The translations under genes were made by a program, and so were the position numbers. From NCBI GenBank assembly GCA_018303485.1, contig JAGVYC010000008.1, positions 1-61,610 of the forward strand: DNA of 61,610 nt. Reading direction: 5' to 3'. How positions within the stretch are numbered: position 1 is the first letter of the stretch; each line of letters opens with the position of its first letter. Shown in pieces: positions 2,421 through 55,232 of the stretch. A model generated the notes under the pieces. That model made no database searches. It was given only the letters and a program-made list of their open reading frames with translations, and was not told where the DNA came from. The stretch is from Candidatus Woesearchaeota archaeon. GTDB taxonomy: Archaea; Nanobdellota; Nanobdellia; SCGC-AAA011-G17; JACPNG01.

Positions 2421-2425
2421 ACATA

Positions 2426-4245: not shown

Positions 4246-6168
4246 ATGGTTGACATTAAAAAAATAATCCTGCTGCTCTTGTTAGTGCCTGCAGTTTATG
4301 CCAATATGGACAATTATAATAACTATAATTCCATTCTGATAGATCTCAATGTTTCTTCAACTGCAGACTCAGATGTAACCGGCAGCAATCCGAGGCTTGA
4401 TTTGGTAAACATATCAGTGTTGTTTTTTCCAAGGGATAATTATATGCAAAAAATTATTTCCGAAAAATTCTACTCTGATCCAAGCACTAATGCCAAAAAA
4501 AGCGAAGATTCAATAGCTTTTATATGGAAAAACCCAGAAATTAAAAAATATTCTTTTTCAACAGTTTATGGCATTAATACATTTAACAGCATTATCAAAG
4601 TAAACAATAAGATAAAATTTCCTTTAACCAACTTGGAAAAAGAATTAGCAAAGTATACTGTTCCAACAGAATATATAGATGTAAATGATGCAATTAAAAG
4701 GCAGGCAGCTGAAATTGCAGAAGGAGAAGACGATTACTATAAGGTTGTTTTTAAGCTAGCTGACTGGGTCAATAAAAATATAAACTATTCATTAAACACA
4801 TTGACAGAAGAGGTTGTAGAGAAATCAAGCTGGGTTCTTGAAAATAAATATGGCGTTTGCGATGAACTTACTAATCTATTCATATCAATGGCTAGGTCTC
4901 TTGGAATACCAGCAAGGTTCGTAACAGGAACAGTTTATACAAACCTCGGATATGCATTCCAGAATCATGGCTGGGCTGAGGTTTACTTTCCTGGCTATGG
5001 CTGGATTCCATTTGATGTGACATTTGCAGAGTACGGCTGGCTGGATCCTAGTCATGTAAAACTTTCTGATTCCTTTGATTCAGGAAGCCCATCAATAAGC
5101 TATATGTGGAAGTCTTATAATGTTAATCTCAATACGAATGATTTGTTAATAGAGGCAAAAGTGGCAAATGCAACAGGATCAGCAGAAAAAATTGTTGATT
5201 TCAGGGTAAAGCCTATTTTTGAAGAAGTTAATTTTGGCAGCCTTGTCCCTGTTGAATTAAATGTCAAAAATTTAAAGCCATATTATGTAGCAATGACTTT
5301 TAAAATAAAGAAAGCGCCAGGCATTTATAATGGCACAACTTCAAAAAGCATTGTTTTGGCGCCGAATGAAGAAAAGCCTCTTTATTGGATCTTTTACGCC
5401 CCGGTAATGGAAGACAAGAATTATATCTACATCTCTGAAATTGAGGTCATAGATAATTTCAATTACGCCGAGGAAAGTAAGGTAAAATACGCCTCAATAT
5501 ACGATTCTTATGACTTGAATTCTGTTACGAGCTTGATAAATTCATTGGCGCCAGAGCAGAAAAAGGAATTGCTTTCTGATGTTTCTATAACATGCAATGC
5601 ATCAAAGGAATACTTCTACTCTGATGAAATGGCTTTGGTTTACTGCAAGATTGAAAGCACAGGCAATAAAATCTTAAAAGACATCAACATTTGTTTGTTG
5701 GCAGAATGCAAGAAAATAGACCTTTCAATAGCAGAATCAAGAAACATTATATTTTCATACACATTTAAAACCAGCGGCAATTATATGGCTATTGCTAAGC
5801 ATGAAGACCTTGAAAAATACTCAAAATTCTACATCAAAGTTATAAAAAAACCCATTGTAATATTAAAAATACAGAATATAAGCGAAATCAATTACAATGA
5901 AATAAAAAACATGACATTGGAGATTGTAACAAATGCAAAGATAAACAATTTGACATTGAAGCTAAGCAAACATGATGCAGCTTCGATTGATGAACTGGAA
6001 GGCCGTTATGTACTAACCCTTCAGCTAAAAGGAAAAAACCTTCTTAAAGAAATGCCAATAGATTTAAAATACAAGGACGAAGTTGGAAAATATTATTTCT
6101 TAAGCAATAGCATTGACATTAAAGTAATAAACATCCCATGGTACAGAAGATTTTTTATGCTAGAGTGA
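4246..6168 (+). CDS. secreted transglutaminase-like cysteine protease domain protein
   Basis: Cys-His-Asp core: GVCDELTNLF, NHGWAEVYFPGYGWIPFDVT. The hydrophobic signal follows the ATG at 4246; the ORF-track start at 4195 is a TTG. Confidence 0.75.
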   Translation: MVDIKKIILLLLLVPAVYANMDNYNNYNSILIDLNVSSTADSDVTGSNPRLDLVNISVLFFPRDNYMQKIISEKFYSDPSTNAKKSEDSIAFIWKNPEIKKYSFSTVYGINTFNSIIKVNNKIKFPLTNLEKELAKYTVPTEYIDVNDAIKRQAAEIAEGEDDYYKVVFKLADWVNKNINYSLNTLTEEVVEKSSWVLENKYGVCDELTNLFISMARSLGIPARFVTGTVYTNLGYAFQNHGWAEVYFPGYGWIPFDVTFAEYGWLDPSHVKLSDSFDSGSPSISYMWKSYNVNLNTNDLLIEAKVANATGSAEKIVDFRVKPIFEEVNFGSLVPVELNVKNLKPYYVAMTFKIKKAPGIYNGTTSKSIVLAPNEEKPLYWIFYAPVMEDKNYIYISEIEVIDNFNYAEESKVKYASIYDSYDLNSVTSLINSLAPEQKKELLSDVSITCNASKEYFYSDEMALVYCKIESTGNKILKDINICLLAECKKIDLSIAESRNIIFSYTFKTSGNYMAIAKHEDLEKYSKFYIKVIKKPIVILKIQNISEINYNEIKNMTLEIVTNAKINNLTLKLSKHDAASIDELEGRYVLTLQLKGKNLLKEMPIDLKYKDEVGKYYFLSNSIDIKVINIPWYRRFFMLE

Positions 6169-6345: not shown

Positions 6346-6621
6346 TTAAGCCTCTTTAACCAGCTTGATGCTAGTCATTAATGCCCATACCCATGCAACA
6401 ATTATTGTTACAAAGCCAACAAATACCATCATGAGTGGATAGCTAATCAAGTACAATACCAACTGCATTACGCCTATTCTTGTTTCTCCACCAATAACGC
6501 TGCCTAACCCTGGAATGAATAAATTAATAATTAAGGCAACTATTGAAAGATTTTTATTTTTATTAGCACTGCTTGATTTTGCAGCAACAACTGGTTTTTT
6601 AGCAACAACCTTTTTAGCCAT
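6346..6621 (-). CDS. small membrane protein (basic N-terminus, two TM helices)
   Basis: MAKKVVAKKPVVAAKSS followed by IVALIINLFIPGLGSVIGG and LVLYLISYPLMMVFVGFVTIIVAWVWAL. Confidence 0.5.
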   Translation of the reverse strand: MAKKVVAKKPVVAAKSSSANKNKNLSIVALIINLFIPGLGSVIGGETRIGVMQLVLYLISYPLMMVFVGFVTIIVAWVWALMTSIKLVKEA

Positions 6622-6695
6622 TTTTAATCGCCTCCTTTGTTATAATTAATATGCTAATTCCAATCTATTTAATAGTTTATATAGTTTTCTTTGCA

Positions 6696-39035: not shown

Positions 39036-40115
39036 ATGGAATTTATCGTACAAAATGCCTTAAAAACAGCCAGTGAATCTGGTAGTTTAAGTCAAATGAC
39101 CACAATAGGTCAAGCAAATATAAAGGTTGTTGGTTGTGGTGGTGCAGGTTCTAATGCTACAACATGGTTATATAAAAAAGGAATACAGGGTGCAGAAGTT
39201 ATAGCATTGAATACTGATAAGCAGCATCTTGATTTGATGAATGCTGATCATAAAATATTAATTGGCAAAGACTTAACAAGAGGTCTTGGCTGTGGCGGTT
39301 ATCCGGAAAAAGGAAGAGACTGCGCCAAAGAATCAATACATGATATCAAAGAAGTTCTAAAAGACACAGATATGGTCTTTATATGTGCTGGAATGGGTGG
39401 AGGTACAGGTACTGGTTCAGCCCCAATTGTTGCCCAGATAGCAAAGGAAGCTGGAGCTATTGTAATTGGTACAGTAACAATGCCATTTGAAATTGAAAGA
39501 GCTAGAATTGATAAAGCAGAATTCGGCTTGCAGCAATTAAGGGACACATCTGATACAGTAATTGTTATTGATAACAACAGGCTGGTTCAAATTGCAGGCA
39601 ACTTGCCAATAGAGCAGGCATTTGCAGTAGCAAACGAGTTGATTGCAACAATGATTAAAGGCATAGTTGAGATAATAGCAGTTCCATCTTTAGTCAATTT
39701 GGATTATGCAGATGTTAAAGCAATAATGGCCAATGGAGAAGTCTCTGTTATAGGCATTGGTGAGTCTGATTCAGAACACCGTGTTGAAGAAGCTGTTAGA
39801 AGAGCACTAGCAAATCCTTTATTGGATGTTAGTTATGAGGGTGCAACAGGCGCTTTGATACATGTAACAGGCGGCCAAGACATGACATTGGATGAAGTTT
39901 CAAAGATAAATGAGATGGTAACAGAAACTCTTGACGTAGACGCTAATGTAATATGGGGCGCAAGAATTAGCAACGAGCTAAAAGGGCGTGTTAGAGTAAT
40001 GACAATAATAACAGGCGTAAACAGCCCATACATACTTGGTAAGGTGGACAAGAAAAAACAAGCTTCAAGATCCATGAGAATGAGTGAAGAGCTAGGCATA
40101 GATTTGGTGCGATAG
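39036..40115 (+). CDS. ftsZ: cell division GTPase FtsZ
   Basis: [30 protein letters not shown]. An SD-like GGGGG lies upstream. Confidence 0.95.
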
Positions 40116-41243: not shown

Positions 41244-42620
41244 ATGGCATTCATCAACAGAAAAGAGGAATTGAAACTTTTGAAAGATAGGATTGCTTCT
41301 AATAAAGCAGAATTTATAATAATCTACGGTAGAAGAAGAGTCGGAAAAAGCGAAATAATAAATGAGATCTTAAAGCAGAATTATGGCCTAAAACTCCTCG
41401 CTAGAGAAGAATCTGAAGAGCTCCAATTAAGAAAGTTCTCTGAAAGCCTGTCTACGTTTTTAAAAGATGAAACTCTGGCAAAAAACCATTTTAAAAATTG
41501 GGATGCATTTTTTACATATATCAATGAACGTTCAAAGAAAAGAATTATTATAGCACTTGATGAATTTCCATATTTGGTTGCTGAAAATAAATCAATAACC
41601 TCCATATTGCAAGACTATTGGGACAATAAATTGAAAAATAGCAAGATATGCTTAATTCTTTGTGGCTCAAGCATTTCTATGATGGAAAGATTATTGGGGC
41701 ATAAAAGCCCGATATATGGCAGAAGAACGTCACAACTCTTGATAACGCCATTTAGCCTTAAGCAGGCATTAGACTATCTAAATATGACTTTTGAAGATGC
41801 AGTAAAAGCCTATTCTGTTTTTGGCGGTACGCCTGCCTACGTATTAGAATATAACATTAAAAAGGATTTACGATGGAACTTGATAGAAAAAGTATTAAAG
41901 AAAGACTCTTTTTTATGCAGAGATGTAGAATTCGTTCTCAAAGAAGAGCTTAGGGAGCCAAGGTATTATTATTCCATAATATCCTCTGTTGCAAAGGGCA
42001 ATACAAAAATATCTGAAATTATTAATGATACTGGTCTGGACAAAGGAATAGTAGGAAAATATCTGTCAATTCTAACAGAACTAATGCTGATCAAAAGGGA
42101 AGTCCCAGTAACAGAAAATCCTCTTAAAAGCAGAAAGGGTATTTATATAATAAGCGATAATTTCTTTAAATTTTGGTTTAGATTTATTTATCCGAATAAA
42201 GAGACTATTGAAAATGAAAATTATAATGTAGTTATTGAGAATATATTTAAATATTTAAATGATTATATTGGCCATACATTTGAAGATGTATGCAAGGCAG
42301 CATTAGAAGAAATGAACAGATCGAATAAAATTAATTTTTCTAAAATCAACAGGTGGTGGTACAAGGATAAAGAAATAGACATAGTTGCCTTAAATGAAGA
42401 TACAAAAGAAATAATGTTCTGCGAATGCAAATGGCAGGATAATGTAGATGCAGGTAAAATTTTAAATGAACTAAAAGAAAAGGCAAAATTTGTAGACTGG
42501 CACAATGGAAATAGAAAGGAACGATATGCAATATTTGCAAAGAGCTTCAAAAAGGCAATAAAAGAAAAGGATTTGCAGATGTTTGATTTAAAAGATATTG
42601 AAAGAGAACTAAAAAAATAA
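41244..42620 (+). CDS. archaeal ATPase family protein (Arch_ATPase AAA+ domain plus DUF234-like C-terminal domain)
   Basis: FINRKEEL..IIYGRRRVGKSE (Walker A), IIALDEFPYL (Walker B), and C-terminal EIDIVAL...ECKW. Confidence 0.75.
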   Translation: MAFINRKEELKLLKDRIASNKAEFIIIYGRRRVGKSEIINEILKQNYGLKLLAREESEELQLRKFSESLSTFLKDETLAKNHFKNWDAFFTYINERSKKRIIIALDEFPYLVAENKSITSILQDYWDNKLKNSKICLILCGSSISMMERLLGHKSPIYGRRTSQLLITPFSLKQALDYLNMTFEDAVKAYSVFGGTPAYVLEYNIKKDLRWNLIEKVLKKDSFLCRDVEFVLKEELREPRYYYSIISSVAKGNTKISEIINDTGLDKGIVGKYLSILTELMLIKREVPVTENPLKSRKGIYIISDNFFKFWFRFIYPNKETIENENYNVVIENIFKYLNDYIGHTFEDVCKAALEEMNRSNKINFSKINRWWYKDKEIDIVALNEDTKEIMFCECKWQDNVDAGKILNELKEKAKFVDWHNGNRKERYAIFAKSFKKAIKEKDLQMFDLKDIERELKK

Positions 42621-43648: not shown

Positions 43649-44257
43649 TTAATATAATCTAGCAATTCTAACTAAAACATCCATGTTTTGATCGGGTATG
43701 TCTTTAATAATGGGGTTCTCTCCATCATAACGATGGGCTATTGTTCTATTATTAATTCCCTCAAAATCTATAGAATTTATGATGTTTACGATGTTTTTAA
43801 AACCCTCTTTAGATTCATTAGGACTAAAATAAATACAAGTACCATCACCTTGTACATTACACCCTCTAGACACATTATTTGCAAAATCATCTATATCTAA
43901 AATTCCGTTCCTATCTCTGTCTTCATTATTGAAAGCTAAATCTTCTAGTCCATTATGGTAAACCGTTATATCACATTCCCCATTAGCGCAAGGATCAACA
44001 GTGCATTCTCTTTCAATTTCTGGCTTGTCATAAGTTGTTCCGCATTCATTAAGATCCCGGCAGACTCTGTACTGATTTCCATCTCTCTGGCAAGAGCCCC
44101 AGTCATTGCAAACCCAGTCTTCTATGCAGCCATTTCCACCATCGCCATTATCTGAACTTCCAGAAGAAGAGCCGCAAGAAACAAGATAAGACAAGCTTGC
44201 TACTGCTATTGCTGTTCTTAGGAATTTGCTGTTTCTAATATTATCTGTTAATGACAT
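43649..44257 (-). CDS. secreted lipoprotein-like protein with a Trp/Cys module
   Basis: Signal with LVSCGSSSGSSDNGDGG, then CIEDWVCNDWGSCQRDGNQYRVCRDLNEC. Confidence 0.6.
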   Translation of the reverse strand: MSLTDNIRNSKFLRTAIAVASLSYLVSCGSSSGSSDNGDGGNGCIEDWVCNDWGSCQRDGNQYRVCRDLNECGTTYDKPEIERECTVDPCANGECDITVYHNGLEDLAFNNEDRDRNGILDIDDFANNVSRGCNVQGDGTCIYFSPNESKEGFKNIVNIINSIDFEGINNRTIAHRYDGENPIIKDIPDQNMDVLVRIARLY

Positions 44258-44298: not shown

Positions 44299-44512
44299 CA
44301 TTGAAACATCTTGCTTAAGTTTAGATAATGATATTTATGCCATATCTGAAATAAAAGAATCCTCTGAATATTTTGTTGGCTCTTGTGTGCGGTGAATGTC
44401 CTGTTATAGCAAGTGATTCAGGTGGATCCGGGTCGCAAGAACCAGCTAATCCTCAGCAACCACCAGAAAATCAACCAGTTGAGCCGGATAATTCACCTGG
44501 TTGGAACCCTTA
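44299..44512 (+). pseudogene. decayed 3' fragment of a paralog of 42764-43645
   Basis: Reads IETSCLSLDNDIYAISEIKESSEYFVGSCVR* compared with FQTSCLQLNENVYAISEIKESSEYFVGSCSN in the intact gene. A shifted frame continues with VCGECPVIASDSGGSGSQEP. There is no 5' part. Confidence 0.6.
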
Positions 44513-44992
44513 ATTTCTATTATAAGATAATGTGTGAGATATAGAAACAGAATTACCATAATCATCTGTGCCGTTATATGTTACCATAAATCTTTCAGAA
44601 GAACAGTTGCTATCCCATTCATCAGGTATGTTTATCGAACTTTTTGGCTGTATTGATTTAAGTATATTTTCTCTTACCTCTCCACCACCACATGTACTAC
44701 CAACTATTCTAGATGTTAATGTAACGCCGGTTCCATTAAGTTCTGTTATATTATCTGAATAATAATGCGTTATGAATCCTGCTGGTGGATCTCTTGCTGG
44801 ACCGCCGCAAACTGCTTGATCAGTAGGACCGCAAACCAATTCAACCTTTAATCTTGCAGGCAAATTATTTCCACCATCGCCATTATCTGAACTTCCAGAA
44901 GAAGAGCCGCAAGCTATAGCATAAGCTAAGATGCTGGTTGCTGCAACTGTTCTTAGGAATTTGCTGTTTCTAATCTTATCTGTTAATGACAT
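44510..44992 (-). CDS. secreted lipoprotein-like protein, paralog of 43649-44257 at the N-terminus only
   Basis: The first ~43 aa and the upstream leader are near-identical to the neighbour (MSLTDKIRNSKFLRT...CGSSSGSSDNGDGGN). The remainder is unrelated. Confidence 0.6.
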   Translation of the reverse strand: MSLTDKIRNSKFLRTVAATSILAYAIACGSSSGSSDNGDGGNNLPARLKVELVCGPTDQAVCGGPARDPPAGFITHYYSDNITELNGTGVTLTSRIVGSTCGGGEVRENILKSIQPKSSINIPDEWDSNCSSERFMVTYNGTDDYGNSVSISHTLSYNRN

Positions 44993-45218: not shown

Positions 45219-45512
45219 ATGGGATTATTTGAATATGTAAAAAACTTGTTTAACAGCAAGAAAAGAGTCATCAAAAAAGAAAAGAAAAAGACAAGTGAAG
45301 ACATAATGGCTATTGTTCGCATGATGAATGGCATGACAAGGGATTTAACAAAGAATATGAGGCTATATGTAAATGACCTAAACTACCGAAGCATGAATAG
45401 CTTGGTTGAACAATATAAAAATATGATGGAGCCTATGATGGATCAGTTATGCTACAATATTGATAGGTACAAGAAATATGCTACATTAGAAGAGATACTA
45501 GTTAATGCATAA
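45219..45512 (+). CDS. Met-rich hypothetical protein (97 aa)
   Basis: The ATG at 45219 is preceded by GGGGGT. MMNGM..NMMEPMMDQ is methionine-rich. First ORF of the co-directional cassette. Confidence 0.4.
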   Translation: MGLFEYVKNLFNSKKRVIKKEKKKTSEDIMAIVRMMNGMTRDLTKNMRLYVNDLNYRSMNSLVEQYKNMMEPMMDQLCYNIDRYKKYATLEEILVNA

Positions 45513-45582
45513 ATTGAATTAAAATTATATATAACAAATAATTTAAATATAAGAAAAACATAATAAAATATAGGGGGGCAAT

Positions 45583-45777
45583 ATGGATCTTGTACAAACT
45601 ATAGGTAACATAGAAAAGGAAAATTTAGAACATAACGAAAAACCTGGAGCCACACCAAGTAAAATTACAAAAGTGTATTCACAAAAACTAGGTCGATATA
45701 TACCAGTAACTTTTGGAGACACAAAAGGAGAGATACAAAAATATAATATAGGTATGGGACCAGGAAGTTGGTACTAA
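45583..45777 (+). CDS. 64-aa ORF, candidate precursor peptide
   Basis: An SD-like GGGGGG lies 5 nt upstream. It encodes MDLVQTIGNIEKENLEHNEKPGATPSKITKVYSQKLGRYIPVTFGDTKGEIQKYNIGMGPGSWY and sits directly upstream of the radical SAM gene. Confidence 0.45.
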   Translation: MDLVQTIGNIEKENLEHNEKPGATPSKITKVYSQKLGRYIPVTFGDTKGEIQKYNIGMGPGSWY

Positions 45778-45786
45778 TTTAAAAAA

Positions 45787-45840
45787 TGGAGCCTTTTGTA
45801 TCTTAAAAGATTATATATTTGGGCTCCAACCAATTTTTTT
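45787..45840 (+). terminator. hairpin plus T7 between the small ORF and the radical SAM gene (attenuator/terminator-like)
   Basis: TGGAGCC (45787-93) pairs with GGCTCCA (45822-28), followed by TTTTTTT (45834-40). Confidence 0.4.
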
Positions 45841-45895
45841 GATAGATTCGCTCAGAAAATGTTTGCCTTTATTATTCACAAAATTTCGGAGTAAA

Positions 45896-46807
45896 ATGAG
45901 AAAGATATTTTTGGTGCTAAACTACGATTGTAATAATGCCTGTATATCATGCGCAAGAAAATCTGATGAAAAAGGATATTTAAGTTTAGAACAGACTATT
46001 AATAAAATTGATGAAATTAAACCATCTAAAACAGATTATATCGAGCTAAGCGGAGGCGAACCAACATTAAGGAAAGACCTATTAGATATCTGTAAATATA
46101 TTAAATCAAAGTATGGTGCAAATATAACAATACTCTCTAATGGGCGTAAATTTAAAGATAAATCTCTTTGTAAAAGCATTAAAGAAGTTGGTGTTGATAG
46201 AGTTATGACGGTATTTTATAGCCATGATGAAGAAAAGCATGATTCTATCACACAAAAAGATGGAAGTTTTAAAGATACAATTATGGGATTAAAAAATCTA
46301 GAAGACGTTAGTTTGCCAATTTCAGTTAAAACGATTATACTCAAACAGACTTACCAAGAATTGCCAGATTTTGTAAAATTTGCATATGATACATTTCCAA
46401 CAGCATGGGTATCAATACATGGTTTAATTATGCGAGGACGAGCGCAAGATAATAACGAAAAAATAGCTGTAAGGTATAAAGATATCAAACCACACATAGA
46501 AATTGCAATAGACCAAGCAATAAAAAGAGATAAAAATTTAGGGATATTCATAATTCCTACTTGTATAATTGATCCATATTATTGGCCATATCTAAGTGTA
46601 AATTGGAAACAAATGACTAAAGAGATGATTTATATCTCTCCACAAGAAAGTGTATTCGGAAATCTAGATGTAGCACAACCAGAATATTGTTCCACTTGTT
46701 TGATTGATGAACACTGTTCATGGTCGTGGGAGTCCGCATGGAAGGAATATATTGCATTATTCGGAATCGAAGAATTAAATAAGATTACAATGGATACATC
46801 GGGGTAA
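45896..46807 (+). CDS. radical SAM enzyme with a C-terminal auxiliary Cys motif (SPASM/twitch-like)
   Basis: LNYDCNNACISC (Cx3Cx2C), ELSGGEPTL (SAM-binding GGE), and C-terminal CSTCLIDEHC. The ATG at 45896 is preferred to the TTG at 45839. Confidence 0.8.
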   Translation: MRKIFLVLNYDCNNACISCARKSDEKGYLSLEQTINKIDEIKPSKTDYIELSGGEPTLRKDLLDICKYIKSKYGANITILSNGRKFKDKSLCKSIKEVGVDRVMTVFYSHDEEKHDSITQKDGSFKDTIMGLKNLEDVSLPISVKTIILKQTYQELPDFVKFAYDTFPTAWVSIHGLIMRGRAQDNNEKIAVRYKDIKPHIEIAIDQAIKRDKNLGIFIIPTCIIDPYYWPYLSVNWKQMTKEMIYISPQESVFGNLDVAQPEYCSTCLIDEHCSWSWESAWKEYIALFGIEELNKITMDTSG

Positions 46808-46811
46808 AATA

Positions 46812-47279
46812 ATGAAACTAACTGCAATCAAAAGAAACCATTCAAAAGGGATATCCAAATTAATGATTAATGACTTGAAAAACCCGAGTAACAAATTTCC
46901 GCAATATATGATTTCTAAATTCAGAGAGCATGCAAAAGAAGAGAACATTGACAAGGAATTTGATAATCCTGATTTAATTGGGCTTATGGCTATAGAAAAT
47001 AAAGATGTTCTTGGATTTATTGTTGGATATAAGGATAACTCAAGTATAATGCTACATTATGTTGCGGGGAAAAATATAACTATAAAAAAGAAGTTGCTTG
47101 ACAGATTAATTAAATTGTGTAAGATAAAAAATATATCTTCCTTAAAAACAGATACATTCGAATTTATGGAAAACAACCAACTTTTTAAGTCAAGTGGGTT
47201 TAAATTAACAAAAAAAGAAAAATTAACTAAAAATCTTGAAGTTTTATGGTACGAATTAAACCTACATAAAATCTTGTAA
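46812..47279 (+). CDS. GNAT-like acetyltransferase (weak)
   Basis: Size and pattern fit a GNAT fold: VLGFIVGY...HYVAGK..KKKLLDRLIKLC..SSGFKL. The start is 4 nt after the radical SAM stop. Confidence 0.5.
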   Translation: MKLTAIKRNHSKGISKLMINDLKNPSNKFPQYMISKFREHAKEENIDKEFDNPDLIGLMAIENKDVLGFIVGYKDNSSIMLHYVAGKNITIKKKLLDRLIKLCKIKNISSLKTDTFEFMENNQLFKSSGFKLTKKEKLTKNLEVLWYELNLHKIL

Positions 47280-47332: not shown

Positions 47333-48586
47333 TCAAGGCAAGTCTTTCAGGTACTGCCAGAGGGTTTTGAACATAATTTCAGCAACTTTTTTGTTTCCTA
47401 GGTCGTTAAAGTGCATGAACTCGCCAGTTATACCATCATCAGCTACAAAATAGCGTTTTTTATTTGAATCTTCATTAATATGCTTCTCTAAATCTATTAA
47501 GATTAAATTTTGCTTTAAAGCTAGATTTCTTACAGCAGGGTTCAGAGAGTTTCTATTGTAACGATACCAATCATTTTTTTCTATAAATATCAAACATTCT
47601 GGTGGTATACTAGGCAAATCAAAATCTTCAAAATCGTCTGGTGTTGTTGTTAAAGTAATTTTAATATTATTTTCTTTGCCCTTATTTATGATTTTAACTA
47701 GATTATCTAAGGTTGTAGTAGGATTATAATCATCCATATGTGATTGTTTACCTACCTGAACTGTGCCGTCAAATTTTATTTTTAGTTCATTACGTGCGCG
47801 TTTAAGCAAATAGACCCTTGTGGCTAAAGCGTCAGCAGTTCGTAGTCCTAAACGTCTAAAGTTTTTCTTATAGGTTTCAAATATCTTGATGTGGTTTTCA
47901 TACCAGGGACCTAATGATCTTAGTGCTTCAGAGTCGGCTAATCCCAAAAAGAAATTTTTAAGTGTCCCACGTTCTTTATCGCTTAATAAAGCGCAACTAC
48001 CAACATCATTCCATTCTGGGCCATAAATAACTAAATCAGGTCTTAAAGTTACTATATCATAAACGAACCTCTTTAAGATCAATGAGCTATTATATCCTAC
48101 TATAGCACCATTAATAACTTCAAATTTTATCGTTTTATTATTCGCTTTACCTTTTTTATTTAATTTATCCTCTAAATATTCAGGATAATTTCCAAAAGAT
48201 GTTGAACCACCTAAAACAACAATTCTATATACATTTTCTGGCTTCATCCTTGAAAATTCATCTCCTTTAAAGCCCATGGAGTTTATTTCAAAATCCTCAG
48301 TTCTATAATTTTTAACTAAGCACCATGGGACATCATAATCACATTTTTTTGTATACATAAGAGCCTCATTACTTGCCATATAATATTTATTAAGGTAACA
48401 TAAGCCATAAAAGAACATAAAGCTCGTGACCAATGAATAAATTAATTTCTTCTTTATGCTTAACCCCTTTATGTTGTTGTCTTTTCCAATTTTATTAGTA
48501 TTTTTCATAATACTACCTAAATTGATTAACCTACTTTTTCTTGTGCTTATCACATTATTATTTTTGTCTAATATTTCTTCCAGCAT
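47333..48586 (-). CDS. membrane-anchored SGNH/GDSL-like hydrolase or acyl-esterase
   Basis: N-terminal TM anchor, block I-like VVLGGSTSFG, block III-like YGPEWND, and block V-like DGITGEFMHFNDLG. Confidence 0.6.
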   Translation of the reverse strand: MLEEILDKNNNVISTRKSRLINLGSIMKNTNKIGKDNNIKGLSIKKKLIYSLVTSFMFFYGLCYLNKYYMASNEALMYTKKCDYDVPWCLVKNYRTEDFEINSMGFKGDEFSRMKPENVYRIVVLGGSTSFGNYPEYLEDKLNKKGKANNKTIKFEVINGAIVGYNSSLILKRFVYDIVTLRPDLVIYGPEWNDVGSCALLSDKERGTLKNFFLGLADSEALRSLGPWYENHIKIFETYKKNFRRLGLRTADALATRVYLLKRARNELKIKFDGTVQVGKQSHMDDYNPTTTLDNLVKIINKGKENNIKITLTTTPDDFEDFDLPSIPPECLIFIEKNDWYRYNRNSLNPAVRNLALKQNLILIDLEKHINEDSNKKRYFVADDGITGEFMHFNDLGNKKVAEIMFKTLWQYLKDLP

Positions 48587-48630: not shown

Positions 48631-49827
48631 TCAAGGCAAGTCTTTCAGGTACGGCCAGAGTGTTTTGAAAGCTGAATCTACCATAATATTCATTCCTGCA
48701 GGAGTATAATGCATCATATCTGTAAAAAATGGACTTTTGTCTGTAAACCTATTAAAAGTGCGATCAAAATCCAAAAGTGTAATGCCATAATCATTTGTTA
48801 ATTTTCTTATCATAGGATTCAACTGCTTTCTATTATACGCACAATTGTCATTAGACCCAAAGATAATATTACATAATCCATTAAAATCTTTAGATATTTC
48901 ATAAACTTCAAAGGCATCTGGTGTTGTGCTTAAAACTATATGTCTAATATCATTTTTTCTAGCAGTTTCTATAAAAGATACCATGTTACCTTCAGTATAT
49001 GCTGGAGAAAAATCATCCATATGTGATATATATCCAAAGTCACTTCTTTCCAGGTCTTTGCGTGGAATGCTATTTTGTGGGTTATTGCTAGAATGTACAA
49101 AAATACTTTTTGCTGCACTTATTAAATACAATTTTTTCATTACTTCATTATTAATTTTTCTAAATTCATATTCTACAGTTTTTCTTTTTTCAAATTCTCC
49201 CTTGAATACATCAAGATGTTTTTCATACCAATTACCTAAAGATATTAATGCGTCTTCCCCAATATTGCCTTCAAAATACCATTTAAGAGTTTCTCTCTCT
49301 CTCATATTAAGCAGGTCGCACATCCAGAGGTCATTCCATTCTGGGCCATAAATGATCATATCTAGTTTTAAGTATGTTAAATTGTTTAAATCATCTAATA
49401 TTTGTCTGCTACTTTTGCCAGGAACGGCAGTATTGATAATATGGACATTTGTTCTTTTATTTAGACTATGAAGTTTATTATTTAATATTATTTCGAGTTG
49501 ATTTGGATAGGCCATAGATGTAGAACCTCCAAACCATGCAGCATAGAACATACCTTTTTCTTTTTCTTGTGGTTTTTCGTATACATATGAATTTGTTTGT
49601 TGTTTTTGACAATGCCTATAATATATTTCTGAAGAAAAAATAGTTGTAAATAATATTAAAGAGGTTAATGCCGAATAAGCTAATTTTTTCTTAACAGTTA
49701 ATTTATGAAACCCTTCATTATCACCCCTCAAAGACTTTATTTTGTATATTATGCTTGCTAGATTGATTAATTCTCCTTTTCTTGTGCTTATCACATTATT
49801 ATTTTTGTCTAATATTTCTTCCAGCAT
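48631..49827 (-). CDS. membrane-anchored SGNH/GDSL-like hydrolase, tandem paralog
   Basis: WFGGSTSMAYP, YGPEWND, FFTDMMHYTPAG. The first 17 codons plus 35 nt of upstream sequence are identical to the neighbour. Confidence 0.6.
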   Translation of the reverse strand: MLEEILDKNNNVISTRKGELINLASIIYKIKSLRGDNEGFHKLTVKKKLAYSALTSLILFTTIFSSEIYYRHCQKQQTNSYVYEKPQEKEKGMFYAAWFGGSTSMAYPNQLEIILNNKLHSLNKRTNVHIINTAVPGKSSRQILDDLNNLTYLKLDMIIYGPEWNDLWMCDLLNMRERETLKWYFEGNIGEDALISLGNWYEKHLDVFKGEFEKRKTVEYEFRKINNEVMKKLYLISAAKSIFVHSSNNPQNSIPRKDLERSDFGYISHMDDFSPAYTEGNMVSFIETARKNDIRHIVLSTTPDAFEVYEISKDFNGLCNIIFGSNDNCAYNRKQLNPMIRKLTNDYGITLLDFDRTFNRFTDKSPFFTDMMHYTPAGMNIMVDSAFKTLWPYLKDLP

Positions 49828-49960: not shown

Positions 49961-50155
49961 ATGGAATTGAAAAGAAAGATCTACAAAAGGGGAAGTTCTT
50001 ATGAAACAACAATCCCACAGCCATTACTATTCAAGCTAGATATTGACAAGAAGAAATATCAAATAATCTTTAAGTTCGACAATCAGGCAGATAAATGGTA
50101 CATTGAATTTGAAAATATAAAGAAAGTTAAAAAAGAGGATGAAAAGAAGAGATAA
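49961..50155 (+). CDS. AbrB/SpoVT-like small DNA-binding protein, copy 1
   Basis: KIYKRGSSYETTIPQPLLFKL is a looped-hinge-helix-type N-terminus. The 3' end overlaps the giant ORF start by 17 nt. Confidence 0.55.
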   Translation: MELKRKIYKRGSSYETTIPQPLLFKLDIDKKKYQIIFKFDNQADKWYIEFENIKKVKKEDEKKR

Positions 50156-53100
50156 TAAAGTAAAAAAGAAAGTAAAGAAAAACATCAAAATCTTTGTAAT
50201 ACTAGTCAGTATTATCTTGGCTTTGTTAATAATTAAAATTATAAATATTCAAGAGATTACCGGATTTGCCGTTTTGACAACAATAACCCAGGCTAATTTC
50301 AATGCGGGAACCTATAACGAAACATTTTATAATACAACAACGCTGGCTGTGCAGTTAAATTTAACTGATGACAGAGCAATTTTGTCTGGTAATTATACAA
50401 GCCAGGTATTTGATGCTGTTATTGCTACAAATTGGAGGAATTTATCATGGACAGAGAATATAACAAATAGATCTGGAAATGTTTCATTTAGAGTAAGAAG
50501 CTGTTTTACTTCTAATTGCGCTGAGCAAAGGCCTTTTGTCGGCCCCGATAATACAACAATTACATACTTCTGGCAGAGTAATCTTAGTTTGTTAAATAAT
50601 ACCCTAACACCAGATTCAAGATATTTCCAGTACATGGCTTTCTTTGCTGCATTGGACAATGATTCAAATGCTGATGGGCCAATATTGCACAATGTAAGCG
50701 TTGATTATGGTGATTGTGTTGAACCAATAAATGATATGTATATCAATGAAAATACAACTTTATGCTTTGGAACTTTTTATGTTAATGATACTGATGGTGA
50801 CAGTAATGTAATAACAATAAGCAATGATTCTGTTTTTGTAACCTGCAATAAAACTAATCTGGTTGGAAATCTATCTGGAAACGGATTTTATTTAAACTCT
50901 AAGTCTTATGTGACAATTAGTGGTTGTTGGATGGTTAATTATACAACTGCTATAAGATTAATTACATCCAATTTTACAACTATCACTGAGAATAACATAA
51001 CAAATATAACAGTTAGTGGTATAAGAATTAGTGATTATTCCAATAGCAATATTATAGATAATAATTCAATTATGTTTGCAAATGGTAGCAGTACAGCAGC
51101 TATTTTCTTACAAAGTAACAGCTTAAACAACACTGTCAAAAAAAATTTGATAAAACATAATGGCAATAAAGGACTTGATATTAATGCAGGTAACACTACA
51201 ATAATAAATAATACCATTATTAATAATACCTATGGGATAAGTGTTGGTTCTGTATTAAATATAACAATAGCTAACAATACCATAGCGTATAATGATCTGG
51301 ATGGTATAAATGGAGCGGGCAATGGTGGTTGGAATAGCAGCCTTATTTATGACAATTTTATAATTGGTAATCTTGGTAGTGGTGGATGCGCAGGTAGTTT
51401 TGGTATTAATATTATTCTTTCATACAATAACTACTTTTACAATAATATTCTTAATAATAGTGGATGTGATGTATATGATAATGGTCAAAACTTCTGGAAC
51501 ACTAGCAATTATTCAGGAACGAATATTATAGGGGGGCCTATGATTGGAGGCAATTACTATTCTGATTATGGATTTTATGATTATTATTCTGATGGAGATG
51601 GAATTGGAGAGCTAAGCTACAGGAATGGCCTAATTAATAGCTATGATGCACTGCCTTTAACAAACAGCAGATGCCTAGTACCAAATAATATTCCAAGAAT
51701 AGAAAGAAGTGTTGTTTTATGTCCTGGCATATATAGTGTTGTAGATAATAGCGATAATGGTGCAATGAACATTACAAATTCATCTGTAATAATAGAATGC
51801 AACCAAACAAGAATAATCGGTACTAGAAATCAAGAAAGAATAATAAATACCAATCCTGGTAGCGGCCAATTGACAAATATAACAGTAAAAAACTGCTATT
51901 TTGAACCACGAGGAGCAGCTATACAAATGATCAATACAAGCTCCAGTTACATTTATGACAATGTAATCAATATGTCTGCAAATGTCATAACTACAATATA
52001 CCTTTACAATGTCAATAACAGCTTAATTGCAAATAACACTTTTGCAAATACATCTAATGAAGCAATAGAGATGAATGACGTAAGCAATAGCATATTTGAA
52101 AACAACACTATATGGAAAATTTCTGGTCATGGCATGGAGTTTGAGAGCAAGCTGCCATCAACAAATGTAACCATAAGAAACAACTTGATAAACTATACCG
52201 TCAGTAACGGCATAACAAGCAATGTAGGCACTGCAATTTATATAAACAACTCAAAATTTTACAATAACACTTTTGCAAATATTGGCGCAACTGGTGATGG
52301 CAGTGTTGAAGCTTGCATTGTTATAGCTGGTTTTGGAAATGAATTCATTGGCAATAAACTCTTAAATTGTACAGGCATTGGAATAAGCTCTGGTTTAGGC
52401 GTTACAGGTGCCATAGTAAATTCAGGCGATAGTTACTTCATAAAATCCAATACAGTAAATGGAACAGCAAACAATAATAATCCTGTATTTAACATCCAGG
52501 GTTCAAATATAACAATAATAAACAACACAATTGAGCGCAGAGGGACTGGAACAGCCATAGCAATGTCATTGAAGGATATAAATAATTCTTACATAGTCAA
52601 TAATACAATAATGAATATTTCATACGGCATAGTTATTTCAGATGGCGATGTAAATCCCTCGGGCAGCTTAAACAGCAAAAACATAACAATAACTGGAAAT
52701 GTATTTTTGAACATAACTAATAATGCAATGATTCTGGCAGGCGACAACTTTACGATTTACAATAATACTCTGGTCTCATACACACCAAGCTCTATAACAG
52801 CCCCAGGAATTTATGGCATAAGCTTAAACAACTCCAAGGTATACAACAACACAATTTATAGGTATGCAGAAGGCATAGCAATATTCAACAGCGAGAATAC
52901 AAGCATAACAAACAATTCCTTGTACGAAAACATATTATTCGGCATAAACATAACCTCTTCCAAAAATATGTCAATAACCAACAACGCAATAAACAACAAT
53001 ACACAGCAGGGCATCCTAATATTAAAATCATCCAACATAACAGTAGAAAAAAACATAATATTCAACAACTCTAAAGACGGCATATCAGTAAACTTCTCAA

Positions 53101-55232
53101 ATTACACAATAATTATAAACAACACAATAAGAAACAATGTCATCTCAGGCATCTCCATATTCGGCTCTAATAGCACAAAGATATTAAACAATTCAATATT
53201 CAACAGCAAGAGGGATGGAATCTACATTGAAGACTCAGAAGGCATATCAATCTTAGAGAATATAATATTAAATAACTCGCAAAGTGGGATTTACGACCCA
53301 TCATCAAACAACTTGGTTTATAACAACAGCGAGGCAGGAATAAGATTAAATTCAAGCAATTACAGCATCATAGAAAATAACAATCTGAGCTACAATGGAA
53401 TAATCTCTTATGTTACAGAATTTTACATGAGCGCCGCTGTATATAGAAATGATGCTTTGGGTGCCGTATACAATTTCACTGCTACTGCTGGAGCGTCAGG
53501 CAGTGAATTTTTCTATATCCTCAATCTTGGGGAATCAATAAGCGTTGTAACAAACAATACAAACGTAAGCCTTCTTGTGAATGGAACAGCCAATGTACAC
53601 CTTGCCTTGGTGAAAATAAATTCTTCTGATATCGGCTGGGGGCATAGCAATCTGACAACATTCTTTGATAATAGCGTTGCCTCGAGCTGCTTGGGCATAG
53701 CACAATATATATCTAATACAGTTCTGCCCAACTCTGCAGATGAAACAAACTGCACGTACTTCCAGGCCAATATCTTCACTGCAAATGGCAATAACAATTA
53801 TACTTATAATGGATTGACAAATGCAACAATAACTCAAGACTCAAGAACTTTAACCCCATCATTATCAGCAGTTTCAACAGTAAACATTGCTAACTTAATC
53901 CTATCAGAATCATCAGATAATAATATAACAAACAACACCATAACATTAAGTTCTGGCTATGGTGTCTTGTTAGATACAGTGAATAATAGCATATTTACAA
54001 ACAACACAATTTTAAGGAATATACAGCCAGCTGTCAGGGCATTAGGAGATTCAAGCTTGATAAACAAAATAATAAACAGCACAAATGTAACAACAAGTGT
54101 TGCATCCAGCATACTGAAAGTCTACTGGTTCTTAATGGTTTATGCTCACGATGGAAATACAGCATTTGAAAACGTAAATGTTTCATTCTACAATAAAACA
54201 GGAATCTACATAACATCAGCTTTAACCTTAAGTCTTGGCTATACCCCTGAATTAACATTGCTTGAATACCAGCATGACGGTAATACAAGAACATATTATA
54301 CGAATTATACAACAAATGCAACAAGGCCAGGTACATTGGATAAGGCCTCAATATCCTATAACTTTACAAGCTCCAGTTTAGTTGATTTAAGCATGCCAGC
54401 TGATCAATCAGGAGGCGGCGGTGGCGGAGGCGGCGGTGGCGACAATCCACCAGGTGGCTGTACAGACGAATGTTCATCAGGCCAGAGAACTTGCTCAGGC
54501 TTATCTGCTTACAAAGAATGCGGCAATTATGATGATGATGTTTGCTTGGAATTTGGTTCTGGAAGAGCATGCAGTAATGACTTGAAATGTTACAGTGGAA
54601 ATTGTATTCTAGAATGCGCTCCAGACTGGCAGTGTTCTTCCTGGAGCTCTTGCATTAACGAAAAGCAAACAAGAACCTGCATAGACAAAAACATCTGCAA
54701 TTCTCAAAAGCCAATGGAAGAGATAAAATGCTCAGAATTAATTAAAATAAAAGAAGCAGCACCAGAATATAATGTAACATGCTTTGAAGCTAAAGGCCTT
54801 TCAGAAGAAGAAATAATTGTATATAGTGATTTGCTGAAAATAACTTCCTGCAAGGATGAAAGAGAAAAATTGGTAAATATAGATACGAGATTCAGGTGCA
54901 ATGGCATTGAAATAAGCATAAATGATGCCTCATTAAATATTGTTTACAAGGAAAAGCCTAGCTTCTTCCTTAACATGAATCAAAATGACCAGCATAAAAA
55001 ATACTGCCCATGGTGCTTCAATAATAAAAAAGACTATGATGAAACAGGCATTGACTGCGGAGGCTCTTGCATGCCTTGCAATGAAAAATCAAGGCTAGAA
55101 TTTCCATTAAAGCCAGCAAAGCCGGATTACAGGCTAGCAATTTTCATTGGAAGCTCAATGGTTGCAATATCTATTGGTTATTTGTTTTTATTCAGAAGAA
55201 AAAGAAATAGGAAAATAAAAAAATGGAATTGA
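50139..55232 (+). CDS. giant (1697 aa) surface protein: N-terminal anchor/signal, long parallel beta-helix repeat region, Gly linker, Cys-rich modules, C-terminal TM anchor
   Basis: Dozens of ~22-aa N-N-(T/S)-I...G-I repeats (PbH1-like) and very dense N-x-S/T sequons. Also a (GGN)10 tract, CAPDWQCSSWSSCINEKQTRTC, DETGIDCGGSCMPC, and a terminal LAIFIGSSMVAISIGYLFLF-RRKRNRK. Confidence 0.85.
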   Translation: MKRRDNKVKKKVKKNIKIFVILVSIILALLIIKIINIQEITGFAVLTTITQANFNAGTYNETFYNTTTLAVQLNLTDDRAILSGNYTSQVFDAVIATNWRNLSWTENITNRSGNVSFRVRSCFTSNCAEQRPFVGPDNTTITYFWQSNLSLLNNTLTPDSRYFQYMAFFAALDNDSNADGPILHNVSVDYGDCVEPINDMYINENTTLCFGTFYVNDTDGDSNVITISNDSVFVTCNKTNLVGNLSGNGFYLNSKSYVTISGCWMVNYTTAIRLITSNFTTITENNITNITVSGIRISDYSNSNIIDNNSIMFANGSSTAAIFLQSNSLNNTVKKNLIKHNGNKGLDINAGNTTIINNTIINNTYGISVGSVLNITIANNTIAYNDLDGINGAGNGGWNSSLIYDNFIIGNLGSGGCAGSFGINIILSYNNYFYNNILNNSGCDVYDNGQNFWNTSNYSGTNIIGGPMIGGNYYSDYGFYDYYSDGDGIGELSYRNGLINSYDALPLTNSRCLVPNNIPRIERSVVLCPGIYSVVDNSDNGAMNITNSSVIIECNQTRIIGTRNQERIINTNPGSGQLTNITVKNCYFEPRGAAIQMINTSSSYIYDNVINMSANVITTIYLYNVNNSLIANNTFANTSNEAIEMNDVSNSIFENNTIWKISGHGMEFESKLPSTNVTIRNNLINYTVSNGITSNVGTAIYINNSKFYNNTFANIGATGDGSVEACIVIAGFGNEFIGNKLLNCTGIGISSGLGVTGAIVNSGDSYFIKSNTVNGTANNNNPVFNIQGSNITIINNTIERRGTGTAIAMSLKDINNSYIVNNTIMNISYGIVISDGDVNPSGSLNSKNITITGNVFLNITNNAMILAGDNFTIYNNTLVSYTPSSITAPGIYGISLNNSKVYNNTIYRYAEGIAIFNSENTSITNNSLYENILFGINITSSKNMSITNNAINNNTQQGILILKSSNITVEKNIIFNNSKDGISVNFSNYTIIINNTIRNNVISGISIFGSNSTKILNNSIFNSKRDGIYIEDSEGISILENIILNNSQSGIYDPSSNNLVYNNSEAGIRLNSSNYSIIENNNLSYNGIISYVTEFYMSAAVYRNDALGAVYNFTATAGASGSEFFYILNLGESISVVTNNTNVSLLVNGTANVHLALVKINSSDIGWGHSNLTTFFDNSVASSCLGIAQYISNTVLPNSADETNCTYFQANIFTANGNNNYTYNGLTNATITQDSRTLTPSLSAVSTVNIANLILSESSDNNITNNTITLSSGYGVLLDTVNNSIFTNNTILRNIQPAVRALGDSSLINKIINSTNVTTSVASSILKVYWFLMVYAHDGNTAFENVNVSFYNKTGIYITSALTLSLGYTPELTLLEYQHDGNTRTYYTNYTTNATRPGTLDKASISYNFTSSSLVDLSMPADQSGGGGGGGGGGDNPPGGCTDECSSGQRTCSGLSAYKECGNYDDDVCLEFGSGRACSNDLKCYSGNCILECAPDWQCSSWSSCINEKQTRTCIDKNICNSQKPMEEIKCSELIKIKEAAPEYNVTCFEAKGLSEEEIIVYSDLLKITSCKDEREKLVNIDTRFRCNGIEISINDASLNIVYKEKPSFFLNMNQNDQHKKYCPWCFNNKKDYDETGIDCGGSCMPCNEKSRLEFPLKPAKPDYRLAIFIGSSMVAISIGYLFLFRRKRNRKIKKWN

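Follow-up and report, generated by a model that had tools for sequence, protein, structure and literature searches.

A 61,610-nucleotide contig from a Candidatus Woesearchaeota archaeon (GenBank assembly GCA_018303485.1, contig JAGVYC010000008.1; this whole stretch is hereafter called the window) carries a compact cassette in which a 64-amino-acid open reading frame (ORF) is followed by genes for a radical S-adenosylmethionine (SAM) enzyme and a GNAT-fold protein. We consider it probable that this cassette is a maturation unit for a product resembling those peptides that are made on ribosomes and modified after translation (RiPPs), that it is a reduced form lacking a prenyltransferase (PT), and that it is specific to DPANN archaea of the Woesearchaeota/Nanoarchaeota type. 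Comparison of related sequences likewise makes it likely that the unit matures peptides and has the 64-residue product as its substrate; confidence in any specific chemistry is low. An earlier interpretation of the same DNA (the sequence-only reading) had listed four co-directional ORFs, several protein motifs, a hairpin and a T7 run, and each of these features is found where it had placed them. The classic RiPP layout that it proposed stands with respect to a precursor-like small ORF, a peptide-type radical SAM maturase and a GNAT-fold partner, but not with respect to a 97-residue ORF at the upstream end or to the attenuator role given to the hairpin. It also lacked a deleted fourth gene, the kinship of the enzyme with HxsC, and a leader box common to bacterial systems. 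With these included, the cassette appears to represent an undescribed candidate family of RiPPs whose set of enzymes is unusual, and it would operate like a radical SAM-dependent RiPP system.

The small ORF has an orthologue directly upstream of the enzyme genes in 12 of 12 distinct loci that were aligned, and one is found beside every intact homologue of the enzyme, as the proposed layout would predict. The distinct peptides from these loci can be aligned end to end and have in common an invariant M1, Y-S, Y, G, Q, N, P-G and W-Y-stop. Within the last 17 codons, differences fall at the third position 618 times, compared with 243 at the first and 172 at the second; because third-position differences far exceed those at the other two, the peptide is evidently under purifying selection. 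A phmmer search of 1.84 billion representative proteins yielded a family of at least 19 clusters, all of 47-80 residues and all ending in PG[S/N/T]WY-stop, which is covered by no Pfam or NCBIfam model. Every related small ORF is preceded by a GGAGG, GGGGG or GAGGT motif 5-10 nt before its ATG and by an A/T box 45-65 nt upstream. The peptide is identical in 21 contigs of the population to which the window belongs, and among the seven population contigs compared the sequence is identical or differs by at most one mismatch. Groundwater samples, for example JGI 3300002105 and ENA ERZ28563641, carry this population. These comparisons indicate that the ORF belongs to a real gene family. An unvarying core points to a product whose target or role is fixed (a signal, a cofactor or an effector, for example) and away from a toxin that diversifies. 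Neither a signal peptide nor HxS repeats nor a peptidoglycan-binding domain is present in the peptide. A separate scan of viral contigs with a degenerate DNA pattern for GPGSWY-stop returned 12 matches, all of which were dismissed as chance.

The enzyme begins at an ATG that corresponds to the MRKIF start of its homologues and matches the Pfam family Radical_SAM (PF04055) with E = 2.7e-19 and 70.4 bits, against a gathering threshold of 29.5. Its motifs are C12-x3-C16-x2-C19, S52-GGE55 and C265-x2-C268-x5-C274, and the residues by which the superfamily is recognized (C12, C16 and C19 together with G53-G54-E55) are invariant in its family. Among NCBIfam models the best match is HxsC (TIGR03977; 145.2 bits, E = 1.8e-42), which is below the cut-off of 267.9 bits, and the next are NirJ2 and MoaA at 81-85 bits, the three matches to NirJ2, MoaA and AhbD spanning 77-85 bits, relative to cut-offs of 231-500 bits. 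No cofactor-forming or tRNA/rRNA-modifying radical SAM family reached its NCBIfam cut-off in these profile searches. The outcome that the sequence-only reading had named as refuting, a confident place in such a family together with small ORFs not conserved beside homologues, did not come about. In literature searches neither the peptide family nor the DPANN cassette proved to have been described, and a recent survey of archaeal RiPPs names only generic radical SAM classes in DPANN (PMC12144867). The view that the locus has no housekeeping role and fits no described family is thereby borne out. Among solved structures, SkfB, Tes, BlsE and PqqE come closest, with the match confined to the core.

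Seven cysteines are invariant across the enzyme family. They include C223, which lies in a P-x-C-x-x-DPxYW motif, and C265, C268 and C274; these four are invariant also in bacterial HxsC-like homologues, a pattern consistent with a single putative auxiliary Fe-S cluster. No SPASM domain (PF13186 or TIGR04085) was matched in Pfam or NCBIfam, and the four extra cysteines, including the CX2CX5C motif, amount to at most a partial, twitch-like module when compared with a seven-cysteine SPASM domain. About 40 protein clusters are 56-74% identical to the enzyme, and all of those that carry an organism name come from metagenome-assembled genomes (MAGs) of Woesearchaeota, Nanoarchaeota or Nanobdellota. 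A scan of metagenomes with the enzyme alignment recovered distant relatives only (20-37% identity), none of them accompanied by a relative of the peptide, the PT or the GNAT-fold protein.

The GNAT gene follows the radical SAM gene in every locus, and in three relatives (P0031, P0034 and P0037) the two are fused, with the GNAT domain at the C terminus of the enzyme. Because of these fusions we take the two proteins to act together, and the GNAT-fold protein would appear to be an obligate partner of the enzyme. Its Pfam match is marginal (E = 1.5e-5; PF13673 at 25.4 bits for a cut-off of 23.6), and its fold is well defined: the AlphaFold 2 (AF2) model has a pLDDT of 94, Foldseek aligns it with many GNAT proteins at TM scores of 0.75-0.79, and a profile comparison matches it to PDB entry 3d8p with E = 1.9e-7.

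The gene order peptide-(PT)-radical SAM-GNAT is retained in all 12 distinct related loci, where the genes abut or overlap and ATGA stop/start overlaps occur; these loci all come from Woesearchaeota/Nanoarchaeota MAGs. The flanking genes, by contrast with this order, have nothing in common among ten loci compared; in L109, for example, the cassette lies between the gene for ribosomal protein L11 and the Spt5-SecE-FtsZ genes. Since the flanks are unrelated from one locus to another, the cassette is best regarded as a self-contained unit that is moved or lost as a block. One 3.8-kb contig with the full four-gene cassette (L004, CAZDQI010000046.1) is labeled Candidatus Saccharibacteria. Every other named member is a DPANN archaeon, and for this reason the label probably stems from an error in binning.

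In most relatives there is a fourth gene, located between the peptide and radical SAM genes, whose product of 295 residues (range 287-312) has a weak, sub-threshold match to PF11991 (Trp_DMAT) in every member. An AF2 model based on 22 sequences (pLDDT 91, pTM 0.90) has ten strands arranged in five alpha-alpha-beta-beta repeats, and the top Foldseek matches listed from the PDB are all aromatic PTs, namely IptA, 5-/6-DMATS, AtaPT, LimF, PagF and KgpF; among the matches listed, E values descend to 3.7e-10, TM scores rise to 0.72 and identities are 10-18%. The five-repeat model and these structural matches identify the gene as an ABBA aromatic PT. The family comprises only 24 clusters, and both its organism-named members and those in the loci examined come from DPANN-type MAGs.

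No PT homologue was found elsewhere in the 61.6-kb window. What remains is a 118-bp relic at the position that the intact gene occupies in relatives. In its 5′ half, which starts with ATGGAGCC (corresponding to Met-Glu-Ser), it can be aligned to the first 65 nt of intact PT genes, and in its 3′ half to the final 50 nt of those genes, where ENVCLYYSQNFGVK-stop corresponds to ESLCVYYSPVFEVKK-stop in relatives. The relic thus holds approximately the first 20 and last 15 codons of the PT gene, collinear and with in-frame stop codons, and it preserves the ATGA stop/start overlap with the radical SAM gene. The GGAG motif near its end has a counterpart in the GAGGT or GGAGGT found at the end of intact PT genes in L001, L004 and L011. 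An independent internal PT deletion has left a frameshifted relic of 164 bp in L011 (cassette region 4837-5783), where the radical SAM gene has also lost residues 28-72, including GGE, in frame, while the peptide and GNAT genes look intact; by these signs the L011 copy of the cassette is decaying. In L009 there is neither a PT gene nor a visible relic, and the core genes are intact. A neighbor-joining tree of the radical SAM enzymes places L011 beside a PT-containing locus, which implies at least two independent losses of the PT.

The relic also bears on the hairpin between the peptide and enzyme genes, which had been read as a device that sets the stoichiometry of precursor and enzyme. The stem and the T7 run are real. 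TGGAGCC(T) pairs with (G)GGCTCCA around a loop of about 26-28 nt, and because this AT-rich window contains few GC-rich 7-bp inverted repeats (four in 61.6 kb, with T runs of at least seven at 0.57 per kb), the combination exceeds chance. A 67-nt piece centered on the stem folds with z = -3.5, and the whole 126-nt spacer with z = -1.17, which is not significant. Oligo-T tracts serve as terminators in archaea, and the retained stem and T7 run might have been co-opted in this genome. The terminator interpretation was rejected on the nonsignificant fold of the whole spacer and on a simple, generic terminator scan that made no call on the plus strand, the hairpin included. Nor is a transcriptional attenuator a feature of the family, because loci with an intact PT have only 6-28 nt between the peptide gene and the PT gene, and no comparable element is present in that gap. 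Rather than being a dedicated attenuator, the hairpin and T7 run appear to have a historical explanation, given their location inside the PT relic.

In the nearest relatives (L001, L004, L007, L011 and, in part, L005), the PT ORF opens with 45 nt that fold into a hairpin of about 20 bp in which the AUG pairs with a CAU at codon 15, with energies down to -23.8 kcal/mol and z values from -2.5 to -5.9. In a comparison of six sequences, RNAalifold predicts 20 pairs, seven of them with compensatory changes. In this alignment 84% of cells are paired, versus 37-52% in controls with the partner strand slid, and two-sided changes occur in seven pairs versus one to three in the slid controls; shuffles reached the observed values in 16-26 of 500 cases. 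The hairpin was not seen in more distant PT genes. Six sequences lend moderate support to an ancestral hairpin that would have masked the PT start codon. The stem in the window corresponds to the outer 8 bp of this structure, all Watson-Crick except for one G-U pair, and the T7 run is the counterpart of TTTTAATTTT in the Phe-Asn-Phe codons of relatives. The proposal that the hairpin tunes enzyme relative to precursor may accordingly be right in spirit, as translational control of a gene that is now gone. For sequence scans in general, the case is a caution that what looks regulatory may be a scar left by the deletion of a gene.

The strongest indication of which molecule the enzyme acts on comes from its nearest homologues outside DPANN, which are 28-34% identical and belong to Clostridia and other metagenomic bacteria (L013-L015, L121-L125). 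Their loci have the order HxsD-HxsB-HxsC-like, with two radical SAM enzymes and an HxsD-like protein, none of which reaches its NCBIfam cut-off. In four independent bacterial lineages, the ORF adjoining the HxsC-like gene starts with MDKLQVFSKKLGTAIEL, MKKVSVFSKKLDSFVNI, MDKLKVFSEKLGAAITM or MKEFEVYSDKLKSMIKV, and these starts share a [VI][YF]SxKL[GDK]xx[IV]x[LVM] box with the KVYSQKLGRYIPV of the window. When a profile hidden Markov model was built from the 20-residue DPANN box alone, the eight ORFs of this kind took ranks 1-8 when 9,843 stop-to-stop segments, drawn from 88 loci, were scored. The bacterial cores consist of SGWNNYSSSW-type repeats or end in ...GGWNNNSGGGSW-stop, and thus present Gly-flanked Trp or Tyr residues, as GPGSWY does. 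Because box and enzyme have been inherited together across domains and the C-terminal portion varies, the arrangement has the signature of a leader-core precursor, and because the box recurs beside the nearest bacterial homologues of the enzyme, it marks the 64-residue ORF as the likely substrate. The leader segment is in this respect distinct from the core (the box is conserved in DPANN and in four bacterial lineages, and the cores differ), and a role in recognition is predicted for it. Separate HxsD-like small ORFs (91-107 residues, with the pattern L.LSPYT...G[VI]IE) accompany the leader-box peptides in bacterial loci. The GNAT protein of the bacterial clusters has no detectable homology to that of DPANN (hhalign probability 2.7%).

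The bacterial peptides are of interest in their own right. They lie at 5009-5302 in L013/L014, 4970-5176 in L015, 3612-3902 in L121 and 3759-3923 in L124, and combine a VFSxKLG leader with repeat cores rich in Trp, Gly, Asn, Ser and Tyr, such as SGWNNYSSSW repeated about seven times. The L013/L014 and L121-L123 lineages also encode a third radical SAM protein, a peptidase U32, a GNAT protein and an AMP-binding enzyme. No NCBIfam or Pfam family covers these Trp-repeat peptides and literature searches found no account of them; their clusters look like an undescribed RiPP family of their own.

In the mechanism that we propose, the 64-residue ORF would be translated from its own strong ribosome-binding site, and its [VI][YF]SxKLGxY[VI]x[LV] box would serve as the recognition (leader) element that docks the precursor to the radical SAM/GNAT pair. 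The segment modified would be the tail N-[IV]-G-[ML]-G-P-G-S-W-Y-COOH. With one SAM-cleaving 4Fe-4S cluster, and probably an auxiliary cluster held by C223, C265, C268 and C274, the enzyme would generate a 5′-deoxyadenosyl radical and act on the Gly-flanked Trp/Tyr tail. By analogy with other peptide-modifying radical SAM enzymes, the likeliest outcomes would be a C-C or C-O cross-link or a modification of the C-terminal Tyr. The GNAT-fold protein, in complex with the radical SAM enzyme, might acetylate an amine of the peptide or might instead dock the peptide in place of the missing HxsD partner or RiPP precursor recognition element (RRE). In the ancestral four-gene form, the ABBA PT would also have prenylated Trp or Tyr, a step presumably dispensed with in the lineage of the window, where the remaining relic would carry the outer stem of the hairpin over the start codon, together with the radical SAM gene's ribosome-binding site.

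Several characterized systems resemble the cassette without being identical to it. In Escherichia coli, HxsC and the small protein HxsD are found in one complex, the second Cys motif of HxsC contributes to HxsA maturation (PMC13128918), and the product carries +8 Da on SHRSS, with chemistry that is unresolved (PMC13128918, Nat Commun 2026). HxsC is the best family match of the cassette enzyme, both enzymes are short, lack an RRE and work beside a small partner to modify a ribosomally made product, and a C-terminal P-x-C-x-x-DPYYW ... CxxCx5C module with four invariant cysteines is common to the cassette enzyme and HxsC-like bacterial proteins. The enzyme nevertheless scores 145 bits for a cut-off of 268, and the window has no match to the HxsA or HxsD families and no paired HxsB, its cassette holding a single radical SAM gene. 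The substrate would be a 47-80-residue peptide that ends in PGSWY and is free of the HxsA-type features named above, the partner has a GNAT fold, and the host is an archaeon. Compared with the bacterial HxsD/HxsB/HxsC-like clusters, the leader box with [VI][YF]SxKL[GDK] and the Gly-flanked Trp/Tyr core are held in common, whereas those clusters have two radical SAM enzymes and an HxsD-like protein, long GGWNNYS-type repeats and no adjacent PT.

The ABBA PT-barrel fold links the full cassette to the cyanobactin PTs (PagF, LimF and KgpF) and to IptA and 5-/6-DMATS. The PT of the full cassette has the size of a cyanobactin F protein, and the peptide offers Trp and Tyr as acceptors for cyanobactin-type prenylation. 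In contrast to cyanobactin clusters, the full cassette has no PatA/PatG proteases or macrocyclization and joins the PT to a radical SAM enzyme, and the window retains only the relic. Mycofactocin (MftA ending in ...GVY, with MftB and MftC) and PQQ (PqqA, PqqD and PqqE) are similar in having a short precursor with critical invariant residues, including a C-terminal Tyr, a single radical SAM maturase, and a core whose invariance points to a defined product and not to a toxin that diversifies. They differ in that MftC (TIGR03962) scores 48.1 bits here for a cut-off of 265 and PqqE 42 bits, and in that the cassette has no RRE protein, SPASM match, MftD/E/F or PqqB/C and a tail of GSWY rather than GVY; MftB (TIGR03967) is not among the NCBIfam matches, nor an RRE domain among the Pfam matches, of the cassette proteins in the window. 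The cassette is thus distinct from HXS, mycofactocin, PQQ and cyanobactin systems. We know of no described RiPP class in which a radical SAM enzyme, an ABBA PT and a GNAT protein act on a C-terminal Trp-Tyr.

Four rival explanations were weighed. A housekeeping enzyme of the MoaA, NirJ or AhbD type, acting on a cofactor or RNA beside a spurious small ORF, could draw on the sub-threshold matches to those families. This explanation is effectively refuted by scores far under the respective cut-offs and under the HxsC match, by the conservation of the small ORF under purifying selection, and by a patchy distribution of the cassette in variable contexts; a cofactor- or RNA-modifying family was rejected for the enzyme on the same scores. 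A role in defense or inter-organism conflict deserves more consideration, although we think it unlikely; the cassette would then work by the mechanism proposed above, and its product would be a radical SAM-matured effector like that of the bacterial HXS anti-phage system instead of a cofactor, signal or antibiotic. HxsC, the closest characterized relative, matures an anti-phage effector (PMC13128918), the cassettes of relatives lie in variable regions beside toxin-antitoxin, HEPN/MNT, NYN and PLD genes, that of the window is near a PDC-S27-type ATPase_2/DUF234 gene, and the unit travels between unrelated contexts. However, PADLOC reports only a generic viperin-like radical SAM similarity, HxsA, HxsB and HxsD are absent, the peptide is without a signal peptide, HxS repeats and peptidoglycan-binding domain, and the cassette was not found on viral contigs.

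The 64-residue protein could instead be a small accessory subunit of the HxsD kind, with the radical SAM and GNAT-fold proteins acting on another protein or on a small molecule specified elsewhere in the genome. HxsC does need a small partner protein (PMC13128918), the cassette is without a protease or exporter, and the peptide sequence is highly conserved. We regard this explanation as quite improbable, in that the bacterial relatives possess HxsD-like ORFs in addition to their leader-box peptides, the strictly invariant residues are at the extreme C terminus, up to the stop codon, an aromatic PT whose natural acceptors are Trp and Tyr is co-encoded, and the bacterial counterparts have the repetitive Trp-rich cores that are typical of substrates. 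It is also improbable that the copy in the window is a decaying, nonfunctional remnant in which loss of the PT was the first step of erosion. The relic with its in-frame stops points in that direction, L011 would show the next stage, and many DPANN are thought to lack synthesis of isoprenoid precursors. Against this, the peptide, radical SAM and GNAT genes are full length and keep all family-invariant residues, the relic preserves the ribosome-binding site and start of the radical SAM gene, and the seven population contigs compared, out of 21 with an identical peptide, are identical or differ by at most one mismatch. L009, which likewise has no PT and intact core genes, indicates that a cassette of three genes is viable in two lineages or more.

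A peptide-maturation unit is favored after this comparison, and several observations weigh against it. In the loci compared, the cassette is accompanied by no conserved protease, transporter or RRE, and Pfam and NCBIfam matched no PqqD-like RRE, leader protease or exporter among the cassette proteins of the window. The core is invariant and not hypervariable, which is atypical of antimicrobial RiPPs. The E values of the leader-box matches are individually weak (0.0035 to 1.5), and the argument from the box is one of rank and adjacency. The GNAT family alignment has no Q/RxxGxG/A acetyl-CoA motif A; at that position it reads ...HY[IV]xAxx[IE]x[IV]KKxLL, and the loop contains no Gly. The chemistry is undefined even for the canonical HxsC enzyme (PMC13128918). 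Finally, in view of the PT loss in the window and the decay of the cassette in L011, the system may be a dispensable one or one in decay.

More tentatively, and at slightly less than even likelihood, the [VI][YF]SxKLG box together with an HxsC-type radical SAM enzyme may define an unrecognized RiPP class of DPANN and Firmicutes-type bacteria, with a new modification on Gly-flanked Trp/Tyr. The DPANN branch would then be minimal (peptide, radical SAM enzyme, GNAT-fold partner and, in some members, an ABBA PT), and its cross-linked, ancestrally prenylated C-terminal Trp-Tyr peptide might be a signal, host-interaction factor or cofactor of episymbiotic archaea. Were this so, the cassette would be the simplest available system for HxsC chemistry; in any case a three-gene system with one short substrate would be a much simpler handle on the chemistry of the HxsC branch, and the cross-domain leader box offers a definite query with which to mine for more members. 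The genomes of DPANN archaea are tiny, and dependence on hosts is assumed for these organisms. In such genomes a peptide-maturation cassette that is conserved and horizontally mobile is unexpected, and it hints at a product important for lifestyle.

Table 1. Features of the cassette region, with positions in the window
Feature	Position	Strand	Basis or remark
97-aa Met-rich ORF, 11 Met	45219..45512	+	lineage-specific, outside conserved cassette
TATA-like TTTAAATA, putative promoter of peptide gene	45542-45549	+	A/T box in relatives; promoter call inferred
G6 Shine-Dalgarno-like run, 4 nt before peptide ATG	45573-45578	+	similar motif before ATG in relatives
Precursor-like peptide gene, 64 aa, ends NIGMGPGSWY-stop	45583..45777	+	orthologues, conserved tail, leader box
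Putative leader box VYSQKLGRYIPV, peptide residues 31-42	45673-45708	+	common to peptides beside bacterial HxsC-like radical SAM genes
Invariant C-terminal tail KGEIQKYNIGMGPGSWY	45724-45774	+	family alignment
118-bp relic of deleted ABBA PT gene	45778..45895	+	aligned to intact PT genes at same position
Hairpin stem 45787-45794 / 45821-45828 and T7 run 45834-45840	45787..45840	+	folding, relatives
GGAG Shine-Dalgarno-like motif of radical SAM gene, 4 nt before ATG	45888..45891	+	in 3′ end of relic; ribosome-binding role inferred
HxsC-like radical SAM enzyme, 303 aa	45896..46807	+	Pfam, NCBIfam, family alignment
GNAT-fold protein, 155 aa	46812..47279	+	starts 4 nt past radical SAM stop

The Met-rich ORF, which the sequence-only reading had counted as the first member of the cassette, does not belong to it. 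None of the 12 related loci then compared contained a match (tblastn, E<=1e-3), Pfam, NCBIfam and PADLOC gave no significant family, and the ORF occurs only in contigs from the window's own population; with no homologue in related loci, its membership is ruled out.

In two relatives, an extra ORF of 76-80 residues follows or slightly overlaps the GNAT gene (6375-6605 in L111 and 6412-6654 in a 196-kb JGI contig, which was used as a gene table only); it is absent from the window. In L001, a gene for a 475-residue radical SAM/SPASM protein and an MBL-fold gene lie directly upstream of the cassette (1164-3503). The former is closest to the Cys-every-fifth maturase CefB, at 275 bits and below the 600-bit cut-off, and the pair may form a second peptide-maturation system. 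FtsZ genes lie no more than a few kb from the cassette in the window (39036-40115, plus strand), in L109 (7387-8520) and in L110, and L012 has an ORF near the cassette that is homologous to the FtsZ of the window by BLAST clustering, with orientations that vary between loci. This proximity may be the remnant of an ancestral insertion near an ftsZ-secE-spt5-L11 cluster.

The window holds several other neighbors. At 41244-42620 (plus strand), an archaeal ATPase_2 plus DUF234 protein matches the PADLOC candidate defense family PDC-S27 with E = 3e-56, and the match suggests an accessory or defense island. Two paralogous minus-strand ORFs just upstream of the cassette (43649-44257 and 44510-44992) belong to no Pfam family and have a near-identical, lipoprotein-signal-like N terminus, MSLTD[NK]IRNSKFLRT...CGSSSGSSDNGDGGN. 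Just downstream, also on the minus strand, tandem paralogous GDSL/SGNH-like hydrolases (47333-48586 and 48631-49827) have the same first 17 residues (MLEEILDKNNNVISTRK). The cell-surface genes that had been placed near the cassette fit with a protein of 1,697 residues at 50139-55232 (plus strand), whose multiple right-handed beta-helix/NosD repeats make it a likely surface protein.

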